A stretch of DNA of 44,056 nucleotides from an uncultured Candidatus Saccharibacteria bacterium (GCA_964363425.1 CAYIIG010000001.1:1-44056); one strand, 5' to 3'. Positions 25,426-35,716 are shown, counted from the first letter of the stretch. Translations and numbers: made by a program. The notes: generated by a model from the letters alone, not told the origin.

Positions 25426-27165
25426 CTATTTCACTAATTTCCCGATATCATCAACTTCTTTCTTAATAAATTTCTCGGCATCTTCCACATCTCGTTTAAA
25501 TTGCTTAAGAATCTTATCTTCTTCTTTTGTAAGCTCTCTCTTAGTGTGAGTTTTTTCAAGAATTTTTATGGTTTCTTGCACATTCTCCTTCAATAAATTA
25601 AATGAGTCGCTCACAGCCGATGAGGCTTCTCGCGTTTCTTTTCGAATTCGCTTTTTCAAAAATAGGAATTTATGCCAACTGTACCAAACAAGTACAATAA
25701 TGAGAACTATCAAGGCTATAAGCGGAATAAGGACAGCAAAGAAACTAACAGCCCAAGAACCAATCCGCAAAAACGCTGACTGGATAACCTTGATTGTAAT
25801 TTTCTCACCAGGCAAACTTTTTGCGCCTCTATCACCCTCAACTTCCGCCCAAAATTTGTAGACACCATCTTGCATTTTTTCCTCAGAAACGAAAGTAAAT
25901 TTCCCGTCTTGACCGCTTTTAATAATAAAGCTTCTTTCATTTTCTTTATCCATTTTGAGCCAAACTGTCACTTTGCTATTAGGGTAAGTAGAGCCTTTGG
26001 CAATGAGAGTCTCACCGCTCGTCAATTCTTTTGAATACTCTGTAAAAATCGGCGCCTCTAAAGGCTTAATAATAAATTCCTCGGTGTTGACGGAATAATT
26101 TTCCGCCTTATCAAACGCCTGAACTAAAATATTTCGTTTGCCGGGATTTTGCGGAAGTAATGTATATGGATTAGTTTTCACAATTTCCGGCGCCACATTG
26201 AAAAAATCGCCCTCGCCGATTTTTATTTTGTAATAATTAACGCCGGACAGAGAATCCGTGGTGTCAAAAACCACTGTCGGTCTTGGATTTTCCGTTTCGT
26301 TGCCATCAATGAATTTTATCTTAAATGGCTTTGGCGGTTCCGTGTCAATTTGGAATCGGAAATGGGATATTTCTCCCCAACCTTTAGAGTTACGAAATTG
26401 GGCGTGAAAATAATGGATACCGTCAGTTAAATCAGGTATCTCTTTCTTACTGATGGCTGGCGAATAAACCACAGTTGGTGTGGAGCGAGGAAGATCGCCA
26501 ACCGACAGTCTTACCGCTGTCACATCGTCCGGGACTTTCCATTCAAATGACGAGTCTTTTTTAGAATACCAGCTATTTGGGTCAGAATGAGTTGGTGAGG
26601 ATATTTCCGGAGCGGATGGTGTGCCGTAAACTATAGTGGGAGTGGTTGATTCTGTAATTGTTGAACCTTTACTATCCAGACTAAACCGAGCACTTCCAAG
26701 ACTTTTTAAAATATTAGTACCTTGGCCATCATTGGCAAGCACGGAACCCGATGGGAAATTAAGATCGACGACACCTAATGCTTTTACCTTAAAACTAACC
26801 GTGATAATTTTACCGGAAGAACCCATAAAGCCCGGATTAAGGACTATTCCTTCAAAATTCACAGTGCCTTCCTTATTTGAAAACGACGGCTCCTGAACCC
26901 ATAGAGAAAAGATGGACCCGGATTTGGAAACCGATACAACTTCCAGCTTATCTTGCGGAAATGAAATCACTCCGGACGCGGCATTCAAAGCTTGGTCGGC
27001 GCTTGAAACATACACAGTTGTCGACAACAGGCTTCCGATAGCGTTGGAACCGGAAGAAGGGGAAAAATACAAATTCGCCGCATTAACGACATTTCCAACA
27101 CTGAAAAATGCCAGCAGTAAAATAAAAAATAGTAAAATATATTTTATTTTTTGAATTTTTTCCAT
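25426..27165 (-). CDS. Cohesin-like domain surface protein with a C-terminal TM anchor and cytoplasmic coiled-coil tail
   Basis: Starts at ATG 27165 (MEKIQKIKYILLFFILLLAFFSVGNVVNA signal peptide). N-terminal module: LYFSPSSG...VYVSS...LNAASGVISFPQDKLEVVSVSK...FEGIVLNPGF...GKIITVSFKVKALG...LANDGQGTNIL. Ig-like middle region, TM WAVSFFAVLIPLIALIVLIIVLVW, then a Lys/Glu-rich tail. Confidence 0.65.
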   Translation of the reverse strand: MEKIQKIKYILLFFILLLAFFSVGNVVNAANLYFSPSSGSNAIGSLLSTTVYVSSADQALNAASGVISFPQDKLEVVSVSKSGSIFSLWVQEPSFSNKEGTVNFEGIVLNPGFMGSSGKIITVSFKVKALGVVDLNFPSGSVLANDGQGTNILKSLGSARFSLDSKGSTITESTTPTIVYGTPSAPEISSPTHSDPNSWYSKKDSSFEWKVPDDVTAVRLSVGDLPRSTPTVVYSPAISKKEIPDLTDGIHYFHAQFRNSKGWGEISHFRFQIDTEPPKPFKIKFIDGNETENPRPTVVFDTTDSLSGVNYYKIKIGEGDFFNVAPEIVKTNPYTLLPQNPGKRNILVQAFDKAENYSVNTEEFIIKPLEAPIFTEYSKELTSGETLIAKGSTYPNSKVTVWLKMDKENERSFIIKSGQDGKFTFVSEEKMQDGVYKFWAEVEGDRGAKSLPGEKITIKVIQSAFLRIGSWAVSFFAVLIPLIALIVLIIVLVWYSWHKFLFLKKRIRKETREASSAVSDSFNLLKENVQETIKILEKTHTKRELTKEEDKILKQFKRDVEDAEKFIKKEVDDIGKLVK

Positions 27166-28031
27166 AAAATTTTCCAGACAAGATACACTATAATTAGTAG
27201 CGTTATTATAACAAAGATTGTGTAATCGCCATACCATGCGCTCGCCTTTTGCGCCGAAATCACGACGACTCTTTTATTGCCTGACTTATCAACTGCTTTA
27301 ATAAATATTTTCCTGTCAAGCGGTTGATGTTTTAAAAGATACGGGCTCTCCGAAACACCAAACCAACCCCATTGTCCCTCACGCACTTCATAATGATCAA
27401 TCCCCGATGCTTTATCTTGCGTCGCAAAAACGAGAAAATATTTTCCGGCAAATATGTTTTGGTCGCTCGCAATGGTCGGCTTGAAATCCTCCGGTGGCTC
27501 CGTGTCTGGAGGAATTTGTAATTTGTAACTTGTAACTTGGCTTTCTGATTTTAAAATTCTAAATTCAAAATTCAAAATTTTCGTTTCTGCTTCTGTTCCT
27601 TTTCCATCGTTCCTCAATGCCTTTATATCGCGAATTTCGATTGCGCCACCACCTTCTTTCTTGGCGCGAAAAATGACTGAAAATAAAAGCTCCTTTGTGT
27701 CCGAAAGTCCTCCCGGAGTAATACCTGAAAAAGCAATGACACCTAATTGAAAAGTGTGCGGTTTTTCAATCCAAAAATTGATAGCGGAATTACCATCTAA
27801 GACTTCTTTTATCTCCAGCAAATCGGCAGGAAAAACAATTTTACCCTCAATAGCGTTAATTGATTCTTCTTCCGTATTTAAAAACACCTGCGCCAAAAAT
27901 TCTTCATTCGGCGCGAAAGATTGATTTTTCGCGTCAAAAAATACCTCTACTGCGAAAGCTGGGGTAAACGCAAAAAACAATATGATGCCTAATGATGCGA
28001 TTGTTGTCTTGATTTGTGATATGTGTCTCAT
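27144..28031 (-). CDS. Cohesin-like domain surface protein with a C-terminal TM anchor
   Basis: Starts at ATG 28031 (MRHISQIKTTIASLGIILFFAFTPAFA). Module: VFLNTEEESINAIEGKIVFPADLLEIKEV...IAFSGITPGG...LLFSVIFRAKKEGGGAIEI...LRNDGKGTE. C-terminal TM TIFVIITLLIIVYLVW. Overlaps the next gene by 22 nt. Confidence 0.62.
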   Translation of the reverse strand: MRHISQIKTTIASLGIILFFAFTPAFAVEVFFDAKNQSFAPNEEFLAQVFLNTEEESINAIEGKIVFPADLLEIKEVLDGNSAINFWIEKPHTFQLGVIAFSGITPGGLSDTKELLFSVIFRAKKEGGGAIEIRDIKALRNDGKGTEAETKILNFEFRILKSESQVTSYKLQIPPDTEPPEDFKPTIASDQNIFAGKYFLVFATQDKASGIDHYEVREGQWGWFGVSESPYLLKHQPLDRKIFIKAVDKSGNKRVVVISAQKASAWYGDYTIFVIITLLIIVYLVWKILWKKFKK

Positions 28032-28041
28032 AATATGTGAT

Positions 28042-29100
28042 TTACCCCGTCCAATAAAACGCCAAGATTGAAAAATCAACCAAATTAACCTTGCCGTCTT
28101 TGTTTAAGTCAACGGAAGGTGGCGGAGACGGTCTGTTATGCCAATACGCGGCAATGGAAAAATCAACAATACCAACTTTTTTATCATTGTTTAAATCGCC
28201 TTTTTCCGGCGCTCTTTTAAAATCTTCTGCCAAAATTGTTTTTGTGCCGACAATAAAACTAACAACCTTACTGAAGGAGCTTATCTCTCCATTGAGCGCA
28301 ACTTTAGATTTCGCGGTGTGTTGTCCGATTTCAAGAATAGATGTGTCAAAATTAAACAAATACGCTCCACTTGCGTCAGATATTTTTTTCACAAAAAATT
28401 CTTCTTCCGAATTAACGCTGATAGTAATTTCCGATGCAGGCGTACTTTGTCCAAAAATTACGATGTTTTCGCCTCGTTTTACCTCGCTTTTGTCTACCAC
28501 GATGGTCGGGGCGATAAAAATACCGCTTACTCTGGTGGTCGCGCCGAAAGTGACGCCTACTGGAAAAGTCAAAAGAGAGGAACGGATGCCTTTGTTATCT
28601 TCTGAATAAACCGAGAAAATATAATTTCCGCCGGAAAGATTAGATAGCGTTATTTGAAAATTGGCATCCGCCCCCGCAACTGTAGTGGCGGCAATTTGCG
28701 CGTCTTTGAGAAGGGTTACTACGCTTTTGGGATACGCGCGACCGGAAAAAATGGCTTGTGGCGACTGGCGCGGAAATTCCCCTCCTCCCCCACCACCTCC
28801 TCCGCTGACCGCGGAAGAAGCGCTGGAAGCGCTACTGGAATAACAAGCTACAGTGTTAAATTCGCAAGAAAGTCCGCAAGTCAATGTTCCACTTGAAAAT
28901 CCGCGATTAATGCAAGTCGCTCCTCCTAAAGCAGAACCATCGCATTGTTCCCCGACACCGATTACACCATCTCCGCAAAGGCTTATTTTTATCGTTGCGG
29001 TGATTTCAGCCGCGAAAATTTCCGACCTAAAAAGCGTGGTGAAAATAATTATAAGAATAGATACGAATGTTAAAACGGCATATAAATTTTTGCTGGACAT
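28042..29100 (-). CDS. Secreted dockerin-domain protein with an N-terminal Cys-rich repeat and Gly/Ser linker
   Basis: 352 aa; signal peptide. CGDGVIGVGEQCDG...C...C...C resembles the Myxococcus-type Cys-rich repeat. SSSASSASSAVSGGGGGGGG linker, two Ig-like segments, and a C-terminal duplicated Ca-binding dockerin repeat (GDLNNDKKVGIVDFSIAAYW / VDLNKDGKVNLVDFSILAFYW). Confidence 0.8.
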   Translation of the reverse strand: MSSKNLYAVLTFVSILIIIFTTLFRSEIFAAEITATIKISLCGDGVIGVGEQCDGSALGGATCINRGFSSGTLTCGLSCEFNTVACYSSSASSASSAVSGGGGGGGGEFPRQSPQAIFSGRAYPKSVVTLLKDAQIAATTVAGADANFQITLSNLSGGNYIFSVYSEDNKGIRSSLLTFPVGVTFGATTRVSGIFIAPTIVVDKSEVKRGENIVIFGQSTPASEITISVNSEEEFFVKKISDASGAYLFNFDTSILEIGQHTAKSKVALNGEISSFSKVVSFIVGTKTILAEDFKRAPEKGDLNNDKKVGIVDFSIAAYWHNRPSPPPSVDLNKDGKVNLVDFSILAFYWTG

Positions 29101-29109
29101 TGAACATTA

Positions 29110-29730
29110 TTATTTTCTTACGCCTATGTTGAATGAAAAGAATTTTCTAAAAAGAAAGATGAGAACGGCAAACAAAACAACACCAAGTCCCACCCATGAC
29201 CATGGTGAGTTAATTCTAAAAAACGCCTCGGTTCTATGTAAAACAGCTTGCCAGATGTTCGCGGGCGCCACCGTAAAAAACAATTTTGTAGCGACCGCTA
29301 TGCCGACAGTGGTGCCGGGCTTATCAAGCACCCCCACAGGACCGCTTTCAATAAATGCGAAATAATCACCTTGCTCCGCTTTCACTGGAACAATCATAGT
29401 GACCAAAACTTCTTGGCTTTCTGTGGGCAAAATCGTAAAAGTGGAGGGACTGAAGACAAACCAATCTTTGCGTGGCCGCATCTGGGGATTTTCCTGATGA
29501 TACGCAACCCCCATTCCGTAAGTGGTCGTTTCGTCACCTGTATTGAAAATCCGCAGACTTGGAAGAGTATAGATTTCTCCAGGCTTCACTAATTCCGTCA
29601 ATCGTATTTCTCCCGCTCCTATGCCTACACCGACTTTCGCGGAAACTACAGAGAAATACAGAGAAAATAATGCTGTGAATAGCATGATGGTCGCCAAAAC
29701 GCCTAATGTTATATGTCTAAATAATTTCAT
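29110..29730 (-). CDS. Signal-peptide plus C-terminal-TM beta-sandwich protein (architecture resembles DUF916/DUF3324 anchors of Gram-positive WxL loci)
   Basis: 206 aa; signal peptide ending VVSAKVG. Beta-rich core (IRLTELVKPGEIYTLPSLRIFNTGDETTTY...FTILPTESQEVLVTMIVPVKAEQGDYFAFI). C-terminal TM WVGLGVVLFAVLIFLF followed by RK. Confidence 0.6.
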   Translation of the reverse strand: MKLFRHITLGVLATIMLFTALFSLYFSVVSAKVGVGIGAGEIRLTELVKPGEIYTLPSLRIFNTGDETTTYGMGVAYHQENPQMRPRKDWFVFSPSTFTILPTESQEVLVTMIVPVKAEQGDYFAFIESGPVGVLDKPGTTVGIAVATKLFFTVAPANIWQAVLHRTEAFFRINSPWSWVGLGVVLFAVLIFLFRKFFSFNIGVRK

Positions 29731-29762: not shown

Positions 29763-31673
29763 CTATTCGCTCAAAACATTAATTAATGCATTTGCAGAAT
29801 TAATCAACACATCTGCGGTTATCTGATCAATAATGCCATTCGCAAGATCGTTCTCAGCCTTATTTATAAAAGCATAAAGTTGATTTAAGGCTGGTGTAAT
29901 CTTGCCATCTTCAATAAACTTCTCAACCTTTTTCAGGTTGGAAAGATATGAATTTTCAATATTTGTCGCAAAATCAGCAAGAACTACACTATCAACAATA
30001 TCTACCGCTTGCTCTACCGGTGTTGGATTGTCTCCCACAGTAATAACTACATCAAGTTGAGCTGTCTCTGATGGGGTGCCATTATCAGTTGCAAAAAAAG
30101 AAACGACATATACGCCTCCTTGAGTTAAATCTGGCGTCCAGACAAATACTCCTGTTTCGGCATTAAATATCGCGCCCACAGGCAGAACGCTTGTCGAAAG
30201 AGTTACTATGTCGGTGTCAAGATCAGTAGCCACAACCACAAATTCAAGAAGAGTTTCTTCTTGAATTTCCTGCGGTCCAACAAAATCGAAAATCGGTGCC
30301 CGATTAACATTCCCCACTGTGATAGTAACGAGTTCAACATCAAGCTCCATTGGTGTCCCGTCGTCGGTAACTGTAAATTCAACATCCGTATAATTGCCTG
30401 CGTCTTCAAAGCTCGGTACCCAACTAAATGTTGCTGTATTGGTATCAAATGTTGCTCCTGCCGGTAGGTTGGAGGCACTAAAAGTTAAATTATCGTTGTC
30501 TGAATCAGATGCTGTAATTGTAAACTCAAGAAGTTGTCCCTCTGTCACAATTTTGTTTCCGATTAGGTCAAGAGTAGGTGGAGTATTGATTGGTTGAGAA
30601 TGGATGCCTCCAAATAAGTACACGGAACCCACAAGCTCGGGACTGATACCATCTCTAGGTGCTCCTATGAGTAGATCTCCGTTGAGCGTCGCCACAACAG
30701 AGAAACCAAAGAAGTTATTGTACTCTATGGCTGGGCTATCCATAGTTATAAGCAATTCCCCTGTAATACCATCAAATAGATACGCTGAACCTCCTAGTGT
30801 AGCAAGTGTATAATTATTATATGCCCCAACAAGTAAGTCACCATTTGGTGTTATAGCGACAGAGAAACCAAAGAAATAAGCCTTCTCTGGATATGGATTG
30901 CTTATCGTCAATTTCAGTGCACCTGTAGTACCATCAAACAGATACACTGAACCAGTATCTGTAGCAATAGTATCGTCTAAGCGTGCTGAAATAAGAATGT
31001 CCCCATTTGGCGTTGTGGCAACATGCTCGCCAAACAAATCACCTAACTGTGGAGTTGGGTTATTTACAGTCAGAAGCAATGCACCTGTAGTATTATCAAA
31101 TAGATATGCTGAACCAGCATTACTGGCACCAGTATCATCCGCAGGTGCTCCAACGAGCAGATTTCCATTTGGTGTTACTGCAACAGATGCGCCGAAGCTA
31201 TCCATTTGTTTTGGAGTCGGGTTATTTATAGTTAACTTTAAAGCCCCTGTAGTACCATCAAACAGGTACACTGAGCCAGAGCCGACTTCGCTAGAATTAT
31301 CATATATCGCACCAATCAATAAATCTCCATTTGGTGTCGTGGCAACAGATGCGCCAAAGCGTTCACCGCCTGGCTCCGGTGTTGGATTATTAATAGTCAA
31401 CTTTAACTCACCTGTAATGCCATTAAATAAATATACTGAACCCGTATCCGTAAAGATAGCATCATCAAAAGGTGCTCCAACAAGTAAATCACCATTTGGT
31501 GTTACGGCAATGGCACTACCGAATTTTTCATTGTACAGGGAGGTAGGATTATCAATAGTTAAAAGCAAACCTCCTATTGCCGCTTTCACATAGTATGTAG
31601 TTATCAATAGAGACAATAAGACCATTAACAACATTGTAGACTTAGTAAGGATTTTGAATGACGGTGTTCGCAT
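29763..31673 (-). CDS. FG-GAP repeat beta-propeller protein with two cadherin-like/putative-Ig domains and a C-terminal helical domain
   Basis: Starts at ATG 31673 (MRTPSFKILTKSTMLLMVLLSLL). About six to seven repeats of FG.SVA.TPNGDLL.GA......GSVYLFDG.TG.L.LT..NP. Then two LTFSASNLPAGATFD...FSWVP...AGNY...TDDG modules and a helical tail. Confidence 0.85.
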   Translation of the reverse strand: MRTPSFKILTKSTMLLMVLLSLLITTYYVKAAIGGLLLTIDNPTSLYNEKFGSAIAVTPNGDLLVGAPFDDAIFTDTGSVYLFNGITGELKLTINNPTPEPGGERFGASVATTPNGDLLIGAIYDNSSEVGSGSVYLFDGTTGALKLTINNPTPKQMDSFGASVAVTPNGNLLVGAPADDTGASNAGSAYLFDNTTGALLLTVNNPTPQLGDLFGEHVATTPNGDILISARLDDTIATDTGSVYLFDGTTGALKLTISNPYPEKAYFFGFSVAITPNGDLLVGAYNNYTLATLGGSAYLFDGITGELLITMDSPAIEYNNFFGFSVVATLNGDLLIGAPRDGISPELVGSVYLFGGIHSQPINTPPTLDLIGNKIVTEGQLLEFTITASDSDNDNLTFSASNLPAGATFDTNTATFSWVPSFEDAGNYTDVEFTVTDDGTPMELDVELVTITVGNVNRAPIFDFVGPQEIQEETLLEFVVVATDLDTDIVTLSTSVLPVGAIFNAETGVFVWTPDLTQGGVYVVSFFATDNGTPSETAQLDVVITVGDNPTPVEQAVDIVDSVVLADFATNIENSYLSNLKKVEKFIEDGKITPALNQLYAFINKAENDLANGIIDQITADVLINSANALINVLSE

Positions 31674-31763
31674 ATTTATATTTTTATTGATTAAAGATAC
31701 CATCAAAATAGTACTAAAAAATACTATTGCTTTGCTATTTGCGTATGTCAAACAAACAACTTT

Positions 31764-32219
31764 TTATTGTGATACGACTTGAACGGTGACAGTAATTGAT
31801 TTTTGGGCGAAGTCAGTCGAAACGGTTGGTGTAGTTAACCGAAAATCAAGGTTTTGTGTTACAGCACCGCTAGGGAATGTCGACGAGGCGGTAATGTATG
31901 TAGTATCGTCCGAGAATTTCATATAAGTCGAACCTGTTGTTGTTGAGACTTCGTGGATAAAAAGATTTGATCCAGTAGTTGGGTTAAGTGTCCACTGCGT
32001 TCCGCCTGTGGCATGAGTTGATTTTACATTCAATTTTGCGGCAGAGCCGTCGTTAGTTACTACCTGTGTCTCGCCATTGCCTACGGTAGTAGTTGCGGTA
32101 TTAAGAGCAACCGAACCATAAGCAATATTACCATCAGCAACAGAAACGGCAAGACTAACGGCTGACACTGTCGCAGTAACATTGGCGGTGGTGGCCGCTC
32201 TGGTCATCTGCCACAACAA
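31764..32219 (-). CDS. Small secreted subunit, paralog of the C-terminal domain of the 941-aa protein; 5' end is out of frame with its likely start (ATG 32313) because of a G9 tract
   Basis: The track ORF starts at TTG 32219. Removing one G from 32289-32297 joins it to ATG 32313, adding MKQDFTPPIAFNDFRAYIKIWALVVIIAGGLLLWQ (n-region plus hydrophobic helix). Confidence 0.7.
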   Translation of the reverse strand: MLWQMTRAATTANVTATVSAVSLAVSVADGNIAYGSVALNTATTTVGNGETQVVTNDGSAAKLNVKSTHATGGTQWTLNPTTGSNLFIHEVSTTTGSTYMKFSDDTTYITASSTFPSGAVTQNLDFRLTTPTVSTDFAQKSITVTVQVVSQ

Positions 32220-32415
32220 AAGACCGCCGGCAATAATAACGACAAGTGCCCATATTTTAATATAAGCGCGAAAATCATTGAAAGCGATGGGGGGGGGTAA
32301 AATCTTGTTTCATTTTGTTTTTAAAAAATTTAATTAATAATTATTAAAAAACCGAATTTAATATCAACATTATATCTCGCCAATTATATCAAGCAAGCCC
32401 GAGTTATCCACACCT

Positions 32416-35241
32416 TTATGGCGCCACCGCTTGCACGGTGATAGTGATTGATTTTTGATTATAATCCGTTGACAAACTGGGTGCAGTCAGTCGGAAATCA
32501 AAACTAACCGTTCCGCTTACCGCCACAGACGGCTTAGCGGTAACATAAGTCGCGCTGTCTGGCATTACTGTCCATGTCGAGCCCGTCGTCGTAGAAAATT
32601 CGTGTTTAAATTGATTTGTCCCTATCGTGGAAGCGAGTGTCCAGCCTGTCCCGCCTGTAGCATCACTTGATTTTACATTTAATTTTTCCGCGACATTGCC
32701 GTCGTTGGTCGCAGTCTTGGTATAAGTGGAGCCAATCGTCGTCGTTGAATTGCTTAGACTTACGAAGCCGTAAGTAACATCTCCAGCCGGCGTGACAGAA
32801 ACTGAATAAACCGCAACCGACCTATAACCCCTGTCAGAGGTGGAAATTTGCTGGGTGGCACCCGTGGCATTCTCAACAACTTTAAAATATCTCCCGCTTC
32901 CATCGGATGGCGCGCCTGTATCATCGTAAGTGGAAGCAGTCGCTCCGTCTATGTTTGAATAACTCGCGTCGCTGTCGGCTACCGACCTTTGCCATTGATA
33001 AGTTAGAGAGCCGACTCCGATATACCCGCGGTCATGACTTGTATCAGCCGATGAGGCGCCGGTGGCACTCACTGTGGCATAAAAATATCTTCCGGCTCCG
33101 ATATTGGCGCTTTGCCCGCTTACGCTTAAAGAAACATGGTCTGCGGATGTCCCATCGCTCCCTGTGGCCACACCTGCGGTTATCGTCGGCGACGGCGCAG
33201 TGGCGTCGTCGTAAGGCGCGGTTGTGGCACCGGACAAAATAGAGTGCCCAGAATCCGCGTCCCCCGAGCTTCTGTACCACTGATATGTTAATGAACCTAC
33301 ACCCCGATATCCACGATCCGAAGCTGATATTTGTTGAGTAGCGCCAGTAGCATTAAGAACTGCTTTATAATACCTGCCCGCTCCAACATTAGCCGAAGCG
33401 CCACTAATACTTAGGGTTACTTTATCGGTGGCTGAGCCATCCGTGGCGCTCGCCGTTCCAGATGTGACAGTCGGCGCCGGCGCGGCAGTGTCGGCGTAGG
33501 TAGAGGCAGTCGCCCCTCCAATATCCGAATAGCTCGCGTCACTATCGGCGGCCGATTTTTGCCACTGGTAAGTGAGAGCGCCGACTCCTCGGTACCCGGT
33601 ATTGGTGGCGCTGTCCACGCTACTGCCGGCAGTATTAGAAGCCACCACTTTATATGTATGGGTGGTGCCATTATTGGCTGAGGCGCCGGACAAACTTAAA
33701 TCTACTTGCGCGGTACTCGCGCCATCACCGGCTACCGCCGACCCAGCCGTGATGGTAGGCGCGGCTGCCCCTGTGTCGTTAAATGTCGCCACATCGCCCG
33801 CCGCGCCCAAGTCCACTGCGTCTCGCCAAACATGATAATCAGTTGCTCCGCTAGATTTTGTCCAAGTAATTGTAACCTTGTCTGTATAGGTACCGTCGGT
33901 GGCCACCACATTGGTCGGCGCGTCAGGAACAGGAGTATAAGTCGCGTAAATGGAATACTTGTTGGTGGTGCCAGTAGGTACTAATGGATTTGGCCAAATA
34001 AATGGTCCCGTATTGGCATCCGTCTGCCCTTGACCGGCTGTCCCTACATCATAATAAATAACATGAGTTCCCGAACCGCTACTGCCCCATTCGGCTAATA
34101 TATAATTGGTTCCGCCGGTCAGACTTGGTTTTGTCGCATAAGTAACCGTTCTCCACGCGACGCCTGTTGCCGCTGGTGTTTGCGCGGTACTGCCGCTATT
34201 AGCTATCAAAGCATTGGAAGAGCTCAAATAAATAGCTGTGCCAAAAGTTTTTGCCGTACCCGAAGGATTGCTATAAACAGTTATTGAATCTACCGCCCCA
34301 GCGTTGGTCCCCATAGCAAACACTGAACCTTTTATACTAGCTTCTATTGTTATATTACCAGCCGTGCCTATGGTTTGGTATCCGAAAACCAACCCCGAAG
34401 CGTGATATATCGGATAGACCGCATTATCCAAAAATGTTTGCGGAATAGTAACCGTAAGTTTTTTGGTGGCGACATCTATGTTCAAATCTCCGTAAGTAAA
34501 GTTTCCGGCCGAATCGTCTATTTTCGGTCTGTAAATCTGCCCTACTTTTCCCGTTCCATAATTTTTTCCGCCAACATAGTTTAGAGGAACATTTTTGTAA
34601 TATATGACATACGAGCCCATTGAGTCTTTATTAACAAAGTATTCTTCAATTGCTTTTGCTTCTATCTCCGCGTCGGTATAAATCGGCTGATAGAAAAATT
34701 CCAAATTTTCCATTTCTATGTCAAAACTTAAAACATTCGTTGTCGGTTTTTCATTTAAAATCCGCTCAATCTCATATCCTCCGCCCGGGAGCGTTGAGGA
34801 ATCCGCCAGTTCATAAAAATGGACTTCTTCTTTCGGGGTCTTGTATTTTATTTTATCACCCGCCACATCAAAATCTTTGTCTGCTTCGGTCACTGTTTCC
34901 ATATTCGGAGTTAGCTTAAACCTAACCTCGTCCCATTTTTTAAATTCAAAAGACGGTTCAAAAGAAGATGCGGTTTCGTTGCCGATTCTTACCTCGGTCT
35001 TTTCCTCTTTATCTGCTTTTATGGTTTTATGCAAAGAAGCGCCTCTCATTTCGTACTTACCAGACATCTGGGAAGCGTTAAATTTATTTTTAACCGCCTC
35101 TTTGGAAATTTTATTTGTATCGCCTGTTCCCGTGGCATAAGTCATCGTCTGAGGCCAGCCGGAAAAAGTCCAACTAAAAATTAGAAGGAATATCAACAGA
35201 AATTTTGAAATTTTACTTTTCCACATTTTTGCTATTGACAT
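32416..35241 (-). CDS. Large secreted repeat protein (putative adhesin): N-terminal beta-rich region, tandem repeats of about 96 aa, C-terminal subunit-like domain
   Basis: 941 aa; signal peptide KFLLIFLLIFSWTFSGW. Residues about 441-807 carry repeats with GYRGVG.LTYQW..S..D..Y..I.GAT...Y.D..AP.PT...G.A...DG.S...V.LS.SG.SAN.G. Residues about 808-941 align with the 151-aa protein. Confidence 0.85.
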   Translation of the reverse strand: MSIAKMWKSKISKFLLIFLLIFSWTFSGWPQTMTYATGTGDTNKISKEAVKNKFNASQMSGKYEMRGASLHKTIKADKEEKTEVRIGNETASSFEPSFEFKKWDEVRFKLTPNMETVTEADKDFDVAGDKIKYKTPKEEVHFYELADSSTLPGGGYEIERILNEKPTTNVLSFDIEMENLEFFYQPIYTDAEIEAKAIEEYFVNKDSMGSYVIYYKNVPLNYVGGKNYGTGKVGQIYRPKIDDSAGNFTYGDLNIDVATKKLTVTIPQTFLDNAVYPIYHASGLVFGYQTIGTAGNITIEASIKGSVFAMGTNAGAVDSITVYSNPSGTAKTFGTAIYLSSSNALIANSGSTAQTPAATGVAWRTVTYATKPSLTGGTNYILAEWGSSGSGTHVIYYDVGTAGQGQTDANTGPFIWPNPLVPTGTTNKYSIYATYTPVPDAPTNVVATDGTYTDKVTITWTKSSGATDYHVWRDAVDLGAAGDVATFNDTGAAAPTITAGSAVAGDGASTAQVDLSLSGASANNGTTHTYKVVASNTAGSSVDSATNTGYRGVGALTYQWQKSAADSDASYSDIGGATASTYADTAAPAPTVTSGTASATDGSATDKVTLSISGASANVGAGRYYKAVLNATGATQQISASDRGYRGVGSLTYQWYRSSGDADSGHSILSGATTAPYDDATAPSPTITAGVATGSDGTSADHVSLSVSGQSANIGAGRYFYATVSATGASSADTSHDRGYIGVGSLTYQWQRSVADSDASYSNIDGATASTYDDTGAPSDGSGRYFKVVENATGATQQISTSDRGYRSVAVYSVSVTPAGDVTYGFVSLSNSTTTIGSTYTKTATNDGNVAEKLNVKSSDATGGTGWTLASTIGTNQFKHEFSTTTGSTWTVMPDSATYVTAKPSVAVSGTVSFDFRLTAPSLSTDYNQKSITITVQAVAP
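32821..33921 (-). repeat. Tandem coding repeats (about 290-nt units, three to four units) inside the 941-aa gene
   Basis: Protein-level repeats at residues about 441-551, 552-646, 647-741 and 742-807. The last unit is shorter. The region is Ala/Gly/Thr/Ser-rich and GC-rich. Confidence 0.75.
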
Positions 35242-35311: not shown

Positions 35312-35716
35312 TCATTTATATAGCTTCAAGAATCCTTCTTTTATTTTGTTAAAATCATCACTATCCACCTGACCGAGACGGCTGGAAAGCCTCCTATGGT
35401 CAATGGCACGAATCTGATGAAGGCAAATAAACATATCTTTCCCCGTATGTTTTATGTGAACATACCAGCTCCCTTTGCGTTGTTGTGTTGTCGTCGGAGC
35501 TACAAGAAAAAATGTATGGGATAACTTTTTTAATATCAAGGCGGGACGAGAAAACAATTTGCTTTTTCCGTTCATTTCCGATCCCACATTCTCTCCAAAA
35601 CTAACCCACCACAAATCGCGCTCTTTTACGAGTGGAGGCTCTGCCTCAGTATTATGCAATTTCTCTTTAACTGTCACCCATTCTAAAAATCGTTTAATTA
35701 TATTACTCATAATCAA
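35312..35716 (-). CDS. PemK/MazF-family toxin-like protein (no cognate antitoxin gene seen)
   Basis: 134 aa; RDLWWVSFGENVGSEMNGKSKLFSRPALIL, VAPTTT and HQIRAIDHRRL match MazF/PemK fold signatures. It has an N-terminal extension of about 30 aa. Confidence 0.8.
   Translation of the reverse strand: MIMSNIIKRFLEWVTVKEKLHNTEAEPPLVKERDLWWVSFGENVGSEMNGKSKLFSRPALILKKLSHTFFLVAPTTTQQRKGSWYVHIKHTGKDMFICLHQIRAIDHRRLSSRLGQVDSDDFNKIKEGFLKLYK

Follow-up and report, generated by a model that had tools for sequence, protein, structure and literature searches.

Why should a small open reading frame (ORF) repeat the C-terminal domain of a large surface protein encoded right next to it? The question is raised by two neighbouring genes in the window, i.e. 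the whole 44,056-nt stretch of DNA analysed here. For this pair, the original prediction envisaged a polymerising small secreted protein as the major subunit, joined by a 941-aa protein through its homologous C-terminal domain. The following features are concerned:

31764..32219, minus strand: 151-aa small subunit ORF with a TTG start, candidate major pilin (based on BLASTP, the domain family, AF2 and Foldseek)
32416..35241, minus strand: 941-aa large surface protein, candidate tip adhesin (based on the ORF and synteny)
32419..32820, minus strand: C-terminal pilin-like domain of the 941-aa protein, residues 808-941 (based on BLASTP and the family HMM)

A BLASTP comparison of the two ORFs returned one strong alignment, with 54% identity and 72% positives over 137 columns (E=2e-36), in which residues 17-150 of the small protein are matched with residues 808-940 of the large one. 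The predicted paralogy between the 151-aa ORF and residues 808-941 is thus real and was correctly placed, and the estimate by eye that roughly half of the positions are identical agrees with the measured value. Across the 44-kb window, the family profile detects exactly two copies of the domain, namely the 151-aa ORF and the C-terminus of the 941-aa protein, the latter aligned over HMM positions 41-172 (E=6e-53). Neither protein carries an LPXTG motif or a transmembrane (TM) tail, and both end right after the last β-strand of the domain, which contains no Trp (...TVQVVSQ* and ...TVQAVAP*).

The small gene departs from expectation at its 5′ end, as seen in the sequence and in the match of the family profile to the frame 31767..32309:

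32220..32313, minus strand: disrupted 5′ end of the small gene

The ancestral ATG (32311-32313, MKQDFTPP) is shifted by one base relative to the ORF owing to nine consecutive C at 32289-32297 (G on the plus strand), situated between this ATG and the h-region of the signal peptide. This run is the only G/C homopolymer of at least 7 nt within the window, and the identical nine C are seen in five other assemblies. The h-region itself (IKIWALVVIIAGGLLLW) is in the same frame as the pilin ORF, upstream of the TTG start, and the alignment of the family profile to the stop-to-stop frame 31767..32309 starts at HMM position 7. Hence, the 'small secreted protein' stands as a paralogue but not as a complete secreted protein, since translation from the TTG start would leave out its signal-peptide region; the mature protein is predicted to begin at about T10, after ...MTRAA. 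Because the signal peptide of the pilin gene is frameshifted, the cell from which this window derives may not produce the fibre proposed below.

The shared domain has zero matches in Pfam and NCBIfam, and its family profile has none among PDB sequences. It defines a family of ~980 clusters at 50% identity, all named members of which are Patescibacteria, and it comes in two forms. In small members (~165-183 aa), the signal peptide is followed by an N-terminal extension of 12 conserved residues (TVxATVTA) and then by the domain, whereas large members (289-2117 aa) carry unrelated N-terminal modules and have the domain, without the extension, at their extreme C-terminus, where it ends at most 3 aa from the last residue in 104 of 109 proteins. 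The extension motif is found in 112 of 127 small proteins versus 4 of 99 large ones, and its columns rank with the best conserved across 65 non-redundant small subunits (consensus xTxTVxATVTA, with T-V at 0.8-0.9). It is unstructured in the AF2 monomer model (pLDDT 60-65). Together, these features mark it as a candidate donor strand:

32157..32192, minus strand: N-terminal extension of the mature small subunit (TTANVTATVSAV), candidate donor strand

In the 941-aa protein, the C-terminal domain begins at strand A (VYSVSVTPAGDVTYG) and lacks any such extension. Upstream of it, the protein comprises a signal peptide, an N-terminal region of no known fold (~37-436), and three to four Ala/Gly/Thr-rich Ig-like repeats of ~95 aa each (~437-807), marked by the motif YQW[QY][KR]S at residues 558, 653 and 748. 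Its sole Pfam match is SCAB-Ig (residues 631-677), and a PDB sequence search returned zero relatives.

The AF2 model of the small protein is all-β with a mean pLDDT of 85.8, the other four of the five AF2 models reaching only 64-72. When it was searched against the PDB with Foldseek, ~34 of the best 50 matches were donor-strand pilins (probability 0.8-1.0), among them FimG/FimF/FimA, PapE/PapA, CsuA/B, CS20, Caf1, the Sulfolobus 0406 thread, the Pyrobaculum bundling pilus and cannulae. These matches are weak (best E=2.8e-3, none at 1e-3, TM-scores of 0.3-0.5), and the modelled fold can be said to resemble donor-strand pilins weakly.

The genes downstream of the pair, all on the same strand, provide the context for this resemblance:

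29763..31751, minus strand: 662-aa secreted FG-GAP β-propeller/He_PIG Ig/FIMAH protein, between the pilin and chaperone genes (based on Pfam)
29110..29730, minus strand: 206-aa membrane-anchored PapD-like protein, candidate chaperone or assembly platform (based on AF2, Foldseek and synteny)
28042..29100, minus strand: 352-aa secreted dockerin protein, candidate terminator or adaptor (based on Pfam and synteny)
28978..29007, minus strand: N-terminal strand motif of the mature dockerin protein (EITATIKISL), resembling the pilin extension (based on a motif count)
27144..28079, minus strand: 311-aa cohesin-like protein with a signal peptide and a C-terminal TM helix, candidate membrane receptor for the dockerin protein (based on synteny)
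25426..27237, minus strand: 603-aa second cohesin-like protein with a Big_13 domain and a C-terminal TM helix (based on Pfam and synteny)

Each of the 19 other loci for which sufficient sequence exists keeps the order large–small–PapD-like–dockerin–cohesin-like/TM; these loci span Campbellbacteria, Zambryskibacteria, Paceibacterota and Minisyncoccia and include the divergent locus L035. An orthologue of the 941-aa protein occupies the same position in 16 of the 16 loci having upstream sequence, the 206-aa-type gene lies directly downstream of the small gene in 19 of 19, and, wherever downstream sequence is available, the next gene after the PapD-like one encodes the dockerin protein. The 662-aa protein (FG-GAP_2, 6e-39; He_PIG, 5.5e-19) has no pilin domain according to the family profile, and a gene of its type is absent at the matching position in L017 and all the other loci; judging from the sequences, it is lineage-specific cargo outside the conserved core.

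The 206-aa protein comprises a signal peptide (1-31), a single β-sandwich (32-154), an amphipathic helix (159-174), a TM helix (178-197) and a short basic tail. Its AF2 model (pLDDT 82.7) has 105 Foldseek matches in the PDB at E<=1e-3, led by the chaperones of chaperone-usher systems DraB (7.6e-7), FaeE, SfaE, Caf1M and FimC, along with PapD-like/MSP domains. The protein has no match to Pfam PapD_N, PapD_C, DUF916 or DUF3324, its family is highly conserved (mean column identity of 59%), and one homolog has been annotated by JGI as 'P pilus assembly chaperone PapD'. The original prediction viewed this protein as a possible membrane anchor; given its PapD-like fold and C-terminal TM helix, a chaperone tethered to the membrane appears a closer description than a passive anchor.

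As a candidate anchor, the dockerin protein combined with the cohesin-like TM proteins is preferable. The former consists of a signal peptide, the strand EITATIKISL, a Cys-rich CGDG module, a Gly run, Ig-like domains and a C-terminal dockerin (Dockerin_1, E=3.2e-6, passing the Pfam cut-off), and has no pilin domain. The motif [VI]xAT[VI] follows its AxA site in 16 of 17 loci and is also found in the divergent loci L034 and L035. Of 43 occurrences of this motif in the 173,869 residues of all ORFs of the loci, 31 are at the N-termini of the pilin and the dockerin protein, although a motif common to both and placed just past the signal-peptide cleavage site could alternatively be a processing or sorting signal. 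Pfam Cohesin matches to the 311-aa and 603-aa proteins are below the cut-off (E=0.11, weak, and E=0.0048, respectively), with the latter also matching Big_13 (E=8.7e-7). The position and the C-terminal TM helix of the 311-aa type are kept in all loci, and the 603-aa type is encoded in about half of them (L004, L017, L023, L024, L027, L028, L032 and L033).

We consider it probable that these genes specify the central part of a donor-strand pilus or surface fibre that a monoderm Parcubacteria (CPR) cell assembles with the help of a chaperone but without an usher. The host presumably belongs to a monoderm CPR lineage without an outer membrane. The central idea of the original prediction, i.e. a major subunit that is joined by the large protein via a homologous C-terminal domain, is supported by the pilin-like AF2 fold, the extension confined to the small form, the PapD-like neighbour and the conserved gene order. 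The strand exchange, polymerisation, assembly order and anchoring that we infer from these features would run as follows. All components would be exported by Sec, and the ~14-kDa small protein would act as the major pilin, its Ig-like groove filled by the N-terminal extension (xTxTVxATVTA) of the next subunit. The 941-aa protein would be the tip subunit, with its variable N-terminal modules serving as the adhesin; as its C-terminal domain would accept a strand but donate none, the distal end would be its only possible position. The membrane-tethered PapD-like protein would cap newly exported subunits by strand complementation and pass them to the fibre. More speculatively, the [VI]xAT[VI] strand of the dockerin protein might plug the last pilin and so tie the fibre to the cohesin-like membrane proteins.

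The same genes could also encode a non-polymerising, WxL-like surface complex. In this scheme, the Ig-like protein in the membrane would complete the C-terminal domains of the small and the large protein alike by supplying a strand, and would retain both of them at the cell surface or wall; rather than building a fibre, the small protein would be a stand-alone partner or competitor. We judge this unlikely, even though the gene logic fits it equally well: the WxL/Csc clusters of Firmicutes, described as non-polymerising (PMC10599100), likewise encode a domain-only small WxL protein, a large one that ends with the domain, and a structurally similar partner, WxLIP (DUF916+DUF3324+TM), with a signal peptide, an Ig-like part and a C-terminal TM helix (PMC10599100, PMC9772566). 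For WxLIP, AF2 predicts insertion of a strand into the WxL domain (PMC10599100). Moreover, the 206-aa model matches E. faecium WxLIP in Foldseek (9i1y and 9i25, the latter a PDB entry titled WxLIP bound to long WxL; E=9e-5, 20% identity), the 206-aa family aligns with DUF916 in hhalign (E=2.8e-4, probability 41%), and the conserved turn ATGGTxWTL is similar to DxRGTxAGWxL, the first of the WxL motifs. It is the domain itself that argues otherwise. None of the 71 family members matches Pfam WxL (PF13731, at E<=10), DUF916 or DUF3324; in hhalign, the family reaches a probability of 0.6% (E=0.088) with an alignment of 16 genuine WxL domains taken from six plasmid loci; and the domain, at 135 aa, has one invariant W-x-L motif (W76-T-L), as opposed to WxL domains (160-190 aa) with two, located in neighbouring strands, of which the second is close to the C-terminus (PMC9772566). 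WxL homology of the domain was thus not detected, which leaves the gene logic as the part of the predicted WxL resemblance that survives. In addition, pilins dominate the best 50 structural matches of the small protein, where the only chain from 9i25 is that of WxLIP; the partner has one domain instead of DUF916 plus DUF3324; and the cassette contains a cohesin/dockerin module in place of an LPXTG protein and sortase. The hosts differ too, with CPR bacteria here and Bacilli for WxL clusters. Such a complex would also leave unexplained the small-only extension and its echo at the N-terminus of the dockerin protein.

This extension bears equally on the idea, which we find improbable, that the shared domain serves as a C-terminal module for sorting or for attachment to the cell envelope (e.g. 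to peptidoglycan or the S-layer), recognised by the neighbouring machinery, with the small protein acting as a decoy or regulator and no strand exchange taking place. The domain indeed always forms the very end of highly diverse cargo proteins, as do other C-terminal sorting domains, WxL domains have been reported to bind peptidoglycan, and the match to the pilin fold is only moderate; however, a PapD-like partner and a conserved unstructured extension on the stand-alone form are hallmarks of strand-complementation systems, and zero matches to known carbohydrate- or peptidoglycan-binding families were obtained. A plain recent tandem or partial duplication without functional coupling, which would turn the small ORF of the window into a decaying pseudogene, would account for the loss of the in-frame start and signal peptide through the nine-C run, but is very improbable, being contradicted at the level of the family: the pair is ancient and conserved, its ~980 clusters falling into distinct small and large sub-families, and the other small genes examined are all intact (15 of 15, with MKQ... 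starts in the closest homologs). Even the window copy has no further lesion, aligns with the family profile from end to end (E=5e-79), and would regain its frame by a single-base change in the C-run.

Returning to the donor-strand fibre as the preferred reading, its place among known systems can be narrowed. A sortase-assembled Gram-positive pilus was rejected, as the subunits lack LPXTG and a Pfam scan revealed no sortase among the cassette genes. With TasA fibres, archaeal bundling pili and Sulfolobus threads, the proposed fibre would share β-rich donor-strand subunits, Sec export and a cell without an outer membrane, and the small-protein model weakly matches 7ueg (rank 20, E=0.046) and 7pnb. 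However, those systems have no PapD-like chaperone, the cassette contains no signal peptidase, SipW- or TapA-like gene, and homology to TasA is not borne out, given that PF12389 (TasA/camelysin) matches neither the window proteins nor the family members.

Chaperone-usher pili (Fim, Pap, Csu and Caf1) provide the best PDB matches of both the pilin-like fold and its PapD-like partner, and show the same pairing of a pilin bearing an N-terminal extension with a two-part adhesin whose extension-less pilin domain is at the extreme C-terminus. They differ in having an outer membrane and an usher, no gene for which was found in the window cassette or the 19 related loci, and in using a periplasmic two-domain chaperone in place of the single-domain, membrane-anchored protein seen here. 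Pfam Fimbrial, PapD_N and Usher gave no matches, and sequence similarity to any PDB chain is lacking. If our reading is right, an ultra-small bacterium lacking an outer membrane would carry a surface fibre akin to the chaperone-usher pili of Gram-negative bacteria.

The closest parallel is offered by the Pam pili of Saccharimonadia, described for Ca. Mycosynbacter amalyticus in 2026 (sequences including WP_260763287.1; PDB 25PZ/25QA), for which assembly by donor-strand exchange was shown by cryo-EM; the pilin genes are accompanied by those for PapD-like chaperones anchored in the membrane, a tip subunit lacking a strand and an anchor that supplies an N-terminal strand, and Pam was reported mainly in Saccharimonadia and Microgenomatia (bioRxiv 10.64898/2026.03.03.709456). 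In both cases, a PapD/FimC-like chaperone with a C-terminal TM helix is encoded beside Ig-like pilins, with no usher. The system proposed here would further share with Pam a monoderm CPR host, Ig-like pilins joined by donor-strand exchange, Sec signal peptides throughout, a single operon, a tip with an acceptor domain but no donor strand, and a terminator or anchor giving only an N-terminal strand. Pam pilins, however, are two-domain proteins of 39-55 kDa, with a nine-strand NTD, a linker donor strand and a truncated Ig CTD (bioRxiv 10.64898/2026.03.03.709456), whereas the candidate pilin described here resembles classical chaperone-usher pilins in having a single domain (~14 kDa, ~143 mature residues) and an N-terminal extension; only a few rare family members (P0347, P0350 and P0388), with an N-domain, an internal strand and a pilin domain, are reminiscent of the Pam layout. 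The proposed tip is a large multi-domain protein instead of the bare domain of PamT, the chaperone-like protein has one β-sandwich where PamC/D have two, anchoring may rely on a dockerin adaptor and cohesin-like TM proteins in place of the TM-bearing PamR, and the family occurs in Parcubacteria/Paceibacteria. Compared with the published description of Pam, the proposed fibre would parallel the pili of other CPR classes, with a different architecture and probably different protein families.

The 941-aa ORF (32416-35241, minus strand) precedes the 151-aa ORF (31764-32219, minus strand) in the window, and the original prediction that the end of the large protein is a copy of the small one proved right in both alignment and coordinates. 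Residues 17-150 of the small protein match residues 808-940 of the large protein with 54% identity and 72% positives over 137 columns (BLASTP, E=2e-36), which lies far past chance, and a profile of the family retrieves only these two copies from the window. The description of the small protein as a secreted paralog was partly sound: its homology to the C-terminus of the large protein stands, but the 151-aa ORF itself starts partway through a signal peptide. The large protein also carries Ala/Gly/Thr-rich Ig-like repeats of ~95 aa, which are visible at the protein level only, no tandem repeats having been found in the DNA of its gene; the stretch 32000-34000, where G+C is 0.505 compared with ~0.40 elsewhere, coincides with these repeats.

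The shared domain, referred to here as the pilin domain, is matched by no Pfam or NCBIfam model in scans of the small and large proteins; likewise, scans of 71 aligned homologs at E<=10 returned no relevant family, and a sequence search of the PDB with the family profile gave no meaningful match. The family is nevertheless large. A word-indexed search yielded 329 matches, and an exhaustive one 981 clusters at 50% identity with E<=1e-3, 523 of them with E<=1e-10; all names given by the sources belong to Patescibacteria (Parcubacteria, Vogel-, Kaiser-, Campbell- and Zambryskibacteria, Paceibacterota, Minisyncoccia). Its members take two forms. Small proteins of 163-183 aa consist of a signal peptide with a terminal AxA site, a conserved xTxTVxATVTA extension and the domain, while large proteins of 289-2117 aa carry the domain at their very end (within 3 residues of the C-terminus in 104 of the 109 large proteins), where it begins directly at strand A (…VYSVSIT.. 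G.I.YG). What precedes the domain in the large proteins is mutually unrelated and includes DUF2341/LamG-like, fn3 and Cys-rich modules, FG-GAP propellers and unknown folds. In 65 non-redundant small proteins, the extension counts among the best-conserved columns, with T-V at 0.8-0.9, and the two forms differ sharply in its presence: ahead of strand A, [VI]x[ACS]T[VIL] is found in 112 of 127 small proteins, against only 4 of 99 large ones. A few large members (P0347, P0350 and P0388) have a TVT(C/G)TV strand between the N-terminal and pilin domains, and in P0347 an FG-GAP propeller related to the 662-aa protein of the window is fused straight to the pilin domain.

From an alignment of 71 sequences, AF2 modelled the small protein as all-β with a mean pLDDT of 85.8 (64-72 in the other four models); the first 24 residues, the conserved extension included, are unstructured (pLDDT 60-65). 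In a Foldseek comparison with the PDB, the best match reached E=2.8e-3, with TM-scores of 0.3-0.5, yet by our own count ~34 of the 50 best matches are donor-strand pilins from independent systems, among them FimG, FimF, FimA, PapE, PapA, the pilin domains of PapG and FimH, CsuA/B, CsuE, CS20, CfaB, Caf1 and CupB6, along with the Sulfolobus 0406 thread, the bundling pilus of Pyrobaculum and Pyrodictium cannulae. We regard this as moderate evidence, at the level of fold and short of proof, that the small protein has a donor-strand-pilin-like fold. The suggested remote kinship with TasA or archaeal bundling pilins was not recovered: PF12389 gave no match, and the corresponding fold match was weak and ranked 20th, so that identity with these fibres was rejected. 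A sortase-assembled pilus was likewise dismissed, both an LPXTG motif and a sortase being absent.

The two genes belong to a conserved cassette, the relevant features of which in the window are:

25426-29100, minus strand, genes for a dockerin protein and for one or two cohesin-like proteins, the latter with C-terminal TM helices; conserved together with the pilus genes across Parcubacteria
28978-29007, minus strand, [VI]xAT[VI] motif (EITATIKISL) of the dockerin protein, directly after the signal-peptide cleavage site
29763-31751, minus strand, secreted FG-GAP β-propeller/He_PIG/FIMAH protein of 662 aa, in this lineage only
32289-32297, minus strand, run of nine C at codons 6-9 of the pilin gene, separating the MKQ start from the pilin frame
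35312-35716, minus strand, PemK/MazF-family toxin gene (Pfam E=5e-14), the immediate upstream neighbour of the adhesin gene

In 16 of the 16 loci having upstream sequence, the gene of the large protein comes first, then that of the small protein, then that of the PapD-like TM protein. In every locus having downstream sequence, the next gene encodes a secreted dockerin protein of ~290-370 aa, followed by a cohesin-like protein of ~260-310 aa with a C-terminal TM helix and often by a second cohesin-like TM protein of ~570-615 aa. The same order persists in a far more divergent locus (L035), and in another divergent locus (L034) pilin and chaperone are retained along with a protein whose N-terminus is of the CGN type. 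The sole departure of the window is the 662-aa FG-GAP/He_PIG gene between the pilin and chaperone genes, which is missing from its closest relative, L017. The segment 25426-29100 thus represents a cohesin-dockerin pair within a CPR cell-surface operon, the cohesin matches lying below Pfam thresholds. Around the cassette are housekeeping genes (MreB, MreC, PBP2, aminoacyl-tRNA synthetases, a UvrD/PD-(D/E)XK helicase-nuclease and YceG); two tRNA genes are present as well. A promoter scan placed sites upstream of the small gene, but because the regional count did not exceed the shuffled expectation, they were not used as evidence.

The 206-aa protein encoded at 29110-29730 was predicted (AF2, pLDDT 82.7) to comprise a signal peptide, a β-sandwich (residues 32-154), an amphipathic helix and a C-terminal TM helix. 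Its Foldseek comparison with the PDB returned 105 matches at E<=1e-3, headed by chaperones of the chaperone-usher pathway (DraB at 7.6e-7, then FaeE, SfaE, Caf1M, FimC and CupB2), with eukaryotic PapD-like/ASH/MSP domains as a second group and the E. faecium WxL-interacting protein at 9e-5 (9i1y; 9i25, 'bound to long WxL'). JGI calls one homolog 'P pilus assembly chaperone PapD'. At the sequence level, Pfam and NCBIfam scans found no relevant family, and a PDB profile search gave no meaningful match. In alignment A3, the family has a mean column identity of 59% and ~35 invariant positions, unusually high conservation for a surface protein, with GVG, FNTGDE, RP..WF and ESGP among the invariant motifs. 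Model confidence is low at two highly conserved segments, KVGVGMGAGEIR directly after the signal peptide and a loop ahead of the last strand (...PGTSVGVAVATKLFFTV); both may become ordered only upon binding of a partner. The family might also have an enzymatic role.

In the window, the mature dockerin protein begins with EITATIKISLCGDG... (motif EITATIKISL), and proteins at the same position in other loci start similarly (TITATVKITV, DINATITTGL, SVGATVKISI); the underlying [VI]xAT[VI] motif, present in 16 of 17 distinct loci as well as in the divergent L034 and L035, is also the core of the pilin extension TVxATVTA. Among 173,869 residues in all ORFs of these loci, the motif occurs 43 times, 31 of them at the N-terminal positions of pilins and dockerin proteins. 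The dockerin protein contains no pilin domain. A common N-terminal core together with the lack of a pilin domain suggests that the dockerin protein may donate a strand, acting as a terminator or adaptor bound to the cohesin-like membrane proteins, in which case it would compete for the pilin groove and end the fibre. The motif common to both proteins could equally be a processing signal.

In the pilin gene, the ATG at 32311-32313 (MKQDFTPP...) is the counterpart of the MKQ... with which the closest homologs begin, and because of the nine-C run it lies one base off the frame of the signal peptide and pilin. That frame is open back to 32309, encoding ...FRAYIKIWALVVIIAGGLLLWQMTRAA, and the family profile matches it from HMM position 7. 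The run is the only G/C homopolymer of at least 7 nt in the 44-kb window, and 15 of 15 other small genes examined are intact. Sequencing error is not supported as its origin, given that the identical nine C recur in five further assemblies that derive from the window's own groundwater site (Hainich); as it was the truncated product that led to those contigs, the sample is biased. The run may reflect phase variation, programmed +1 frameshifting, or recent inactivation yielding a fresh pseudogene. With eight or eleven C, the gene would again encode a 182-aa precursor; the protein collection contained no in-frame 182-aa version of this pilin. From the nucleotide sequence, the signal peptide might also be obtained by a +1 ribosomal slip on CCC-C or from an ATT start at ...ATT AAA ATA TGG....

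Building on the paralogy, the domain architecture, the distribution of the extension, the fold similarities and the conserved gene order shown above, we infer strand exchange, polymerisation, an order of assembly and a mode of anchoring. The small protein, with both donor strand and groove, would be the major pilin, and the large protein, having an acceptor groove and no strand to donate, the tip adhesin; the 206-aa protein, as a chaperone tethered to the membrane, would cap grooves following Sec export and prime strand exchange. The dockerin protein, contributing a strand only, would serve as terminator or adaptor, with the cohesin-like TM proteins as its membrane receptors. Read jointly, and as a tentative proposal that we consider doubtful as a whole, the cassette would specify a donor-strand-exchange fibre of Parcubacteria made with a minimal kit (a PapD-like chaperone that has one domain and is tethered to the membrane, a single pilin, and tip adhesins that can be swapped), with a new form of anchoring, and with a pilin that, in the window, would be switched by phase variation or +1 frameshifting at the poly-C tract. 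Growth would end when the secreted adaptor gives its pilin-like N-terminal strand to the last subunit, after which a cohesin-dockerin bond would fasten the fibre to the membrane proteins; as a proposal, such anchoring would be a previously unseen principle.

CPR bacteria (Patescibacteria) are mostly obligate epibionts, for which attachment to host cells is central, and to our knowledge the only fibres so far linked to it are type IV pili and Pam pili, the latter described only recently. Pfam and NCBIfam leave two families of the cassette unannotated, the pilin domain (~980 clusters at 50% identity) and the PapD-like membrane protein, both of which occur across Parcubacteria, the largest CPR group. 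If the proposal is true, chaperone-assisted donor-strand assembly would be widespread among monoderm ultra-small bacteria, the usher would be dispensable and a one-domain chaperone may even suffice, while the hypervariable N-terminal modules on a constant pilin domain would amount to a catalogue of candidate host-recognition adhesins.

Among the closest known systems are the Pam pili of a Saccharimonadia bacterium, for which cryo-EM structures were solved and donor-strand exchange was proposed with membrane-anchored PapD-like chaperones, no usher, a tip subunit lacking a strand and an anchor that brings an N-terminal one (2026 preprint, bioRxiv 10.64898/2026.03.03.709456). Compared by description, the window system would work alike. 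Here, however, the pilin is single-domain with an N-terminal extension, the tip is a large two-part adhesin, the chaperone has one domain, a cohesin/dockerin module is present, and the hosts are Parcubacteria, which the Pam preprint does not mention. The two-domain layout of Pam pilins ('NTD, linker strand, CTD') recurs in P0347, P0350 and P0388, which may be evolutionary intermediates. With the WxL/Csc clusters of Firmicutes, the window system has its gene logic in common, and their partner protein is structurally similar to the 206-aa protein. The pilin domain, by contrast, has only one W-x-L motif, and the likeness to WxL proteins that had been noted did not amount to detectable homology: against 16 real WxL domains, hhalign probability was <1% in local, relaxed and global modes; the 206-aa family gave an ambiguous 41% against six DUF916 proteins. 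Both sets were taken from plasmid loci, a consensus-like WxL query having served only to fish out real WxL loci. Classical chaperone-usher pili share their folds with the window system, which differs from them in lacking an usher, a two-domain periplasmic chaperone and any sequence signal. In structural terms, the cassette also connects the poorly understood Firmicutes WxL clusters with both Pam pili and chaperone-usher pili.
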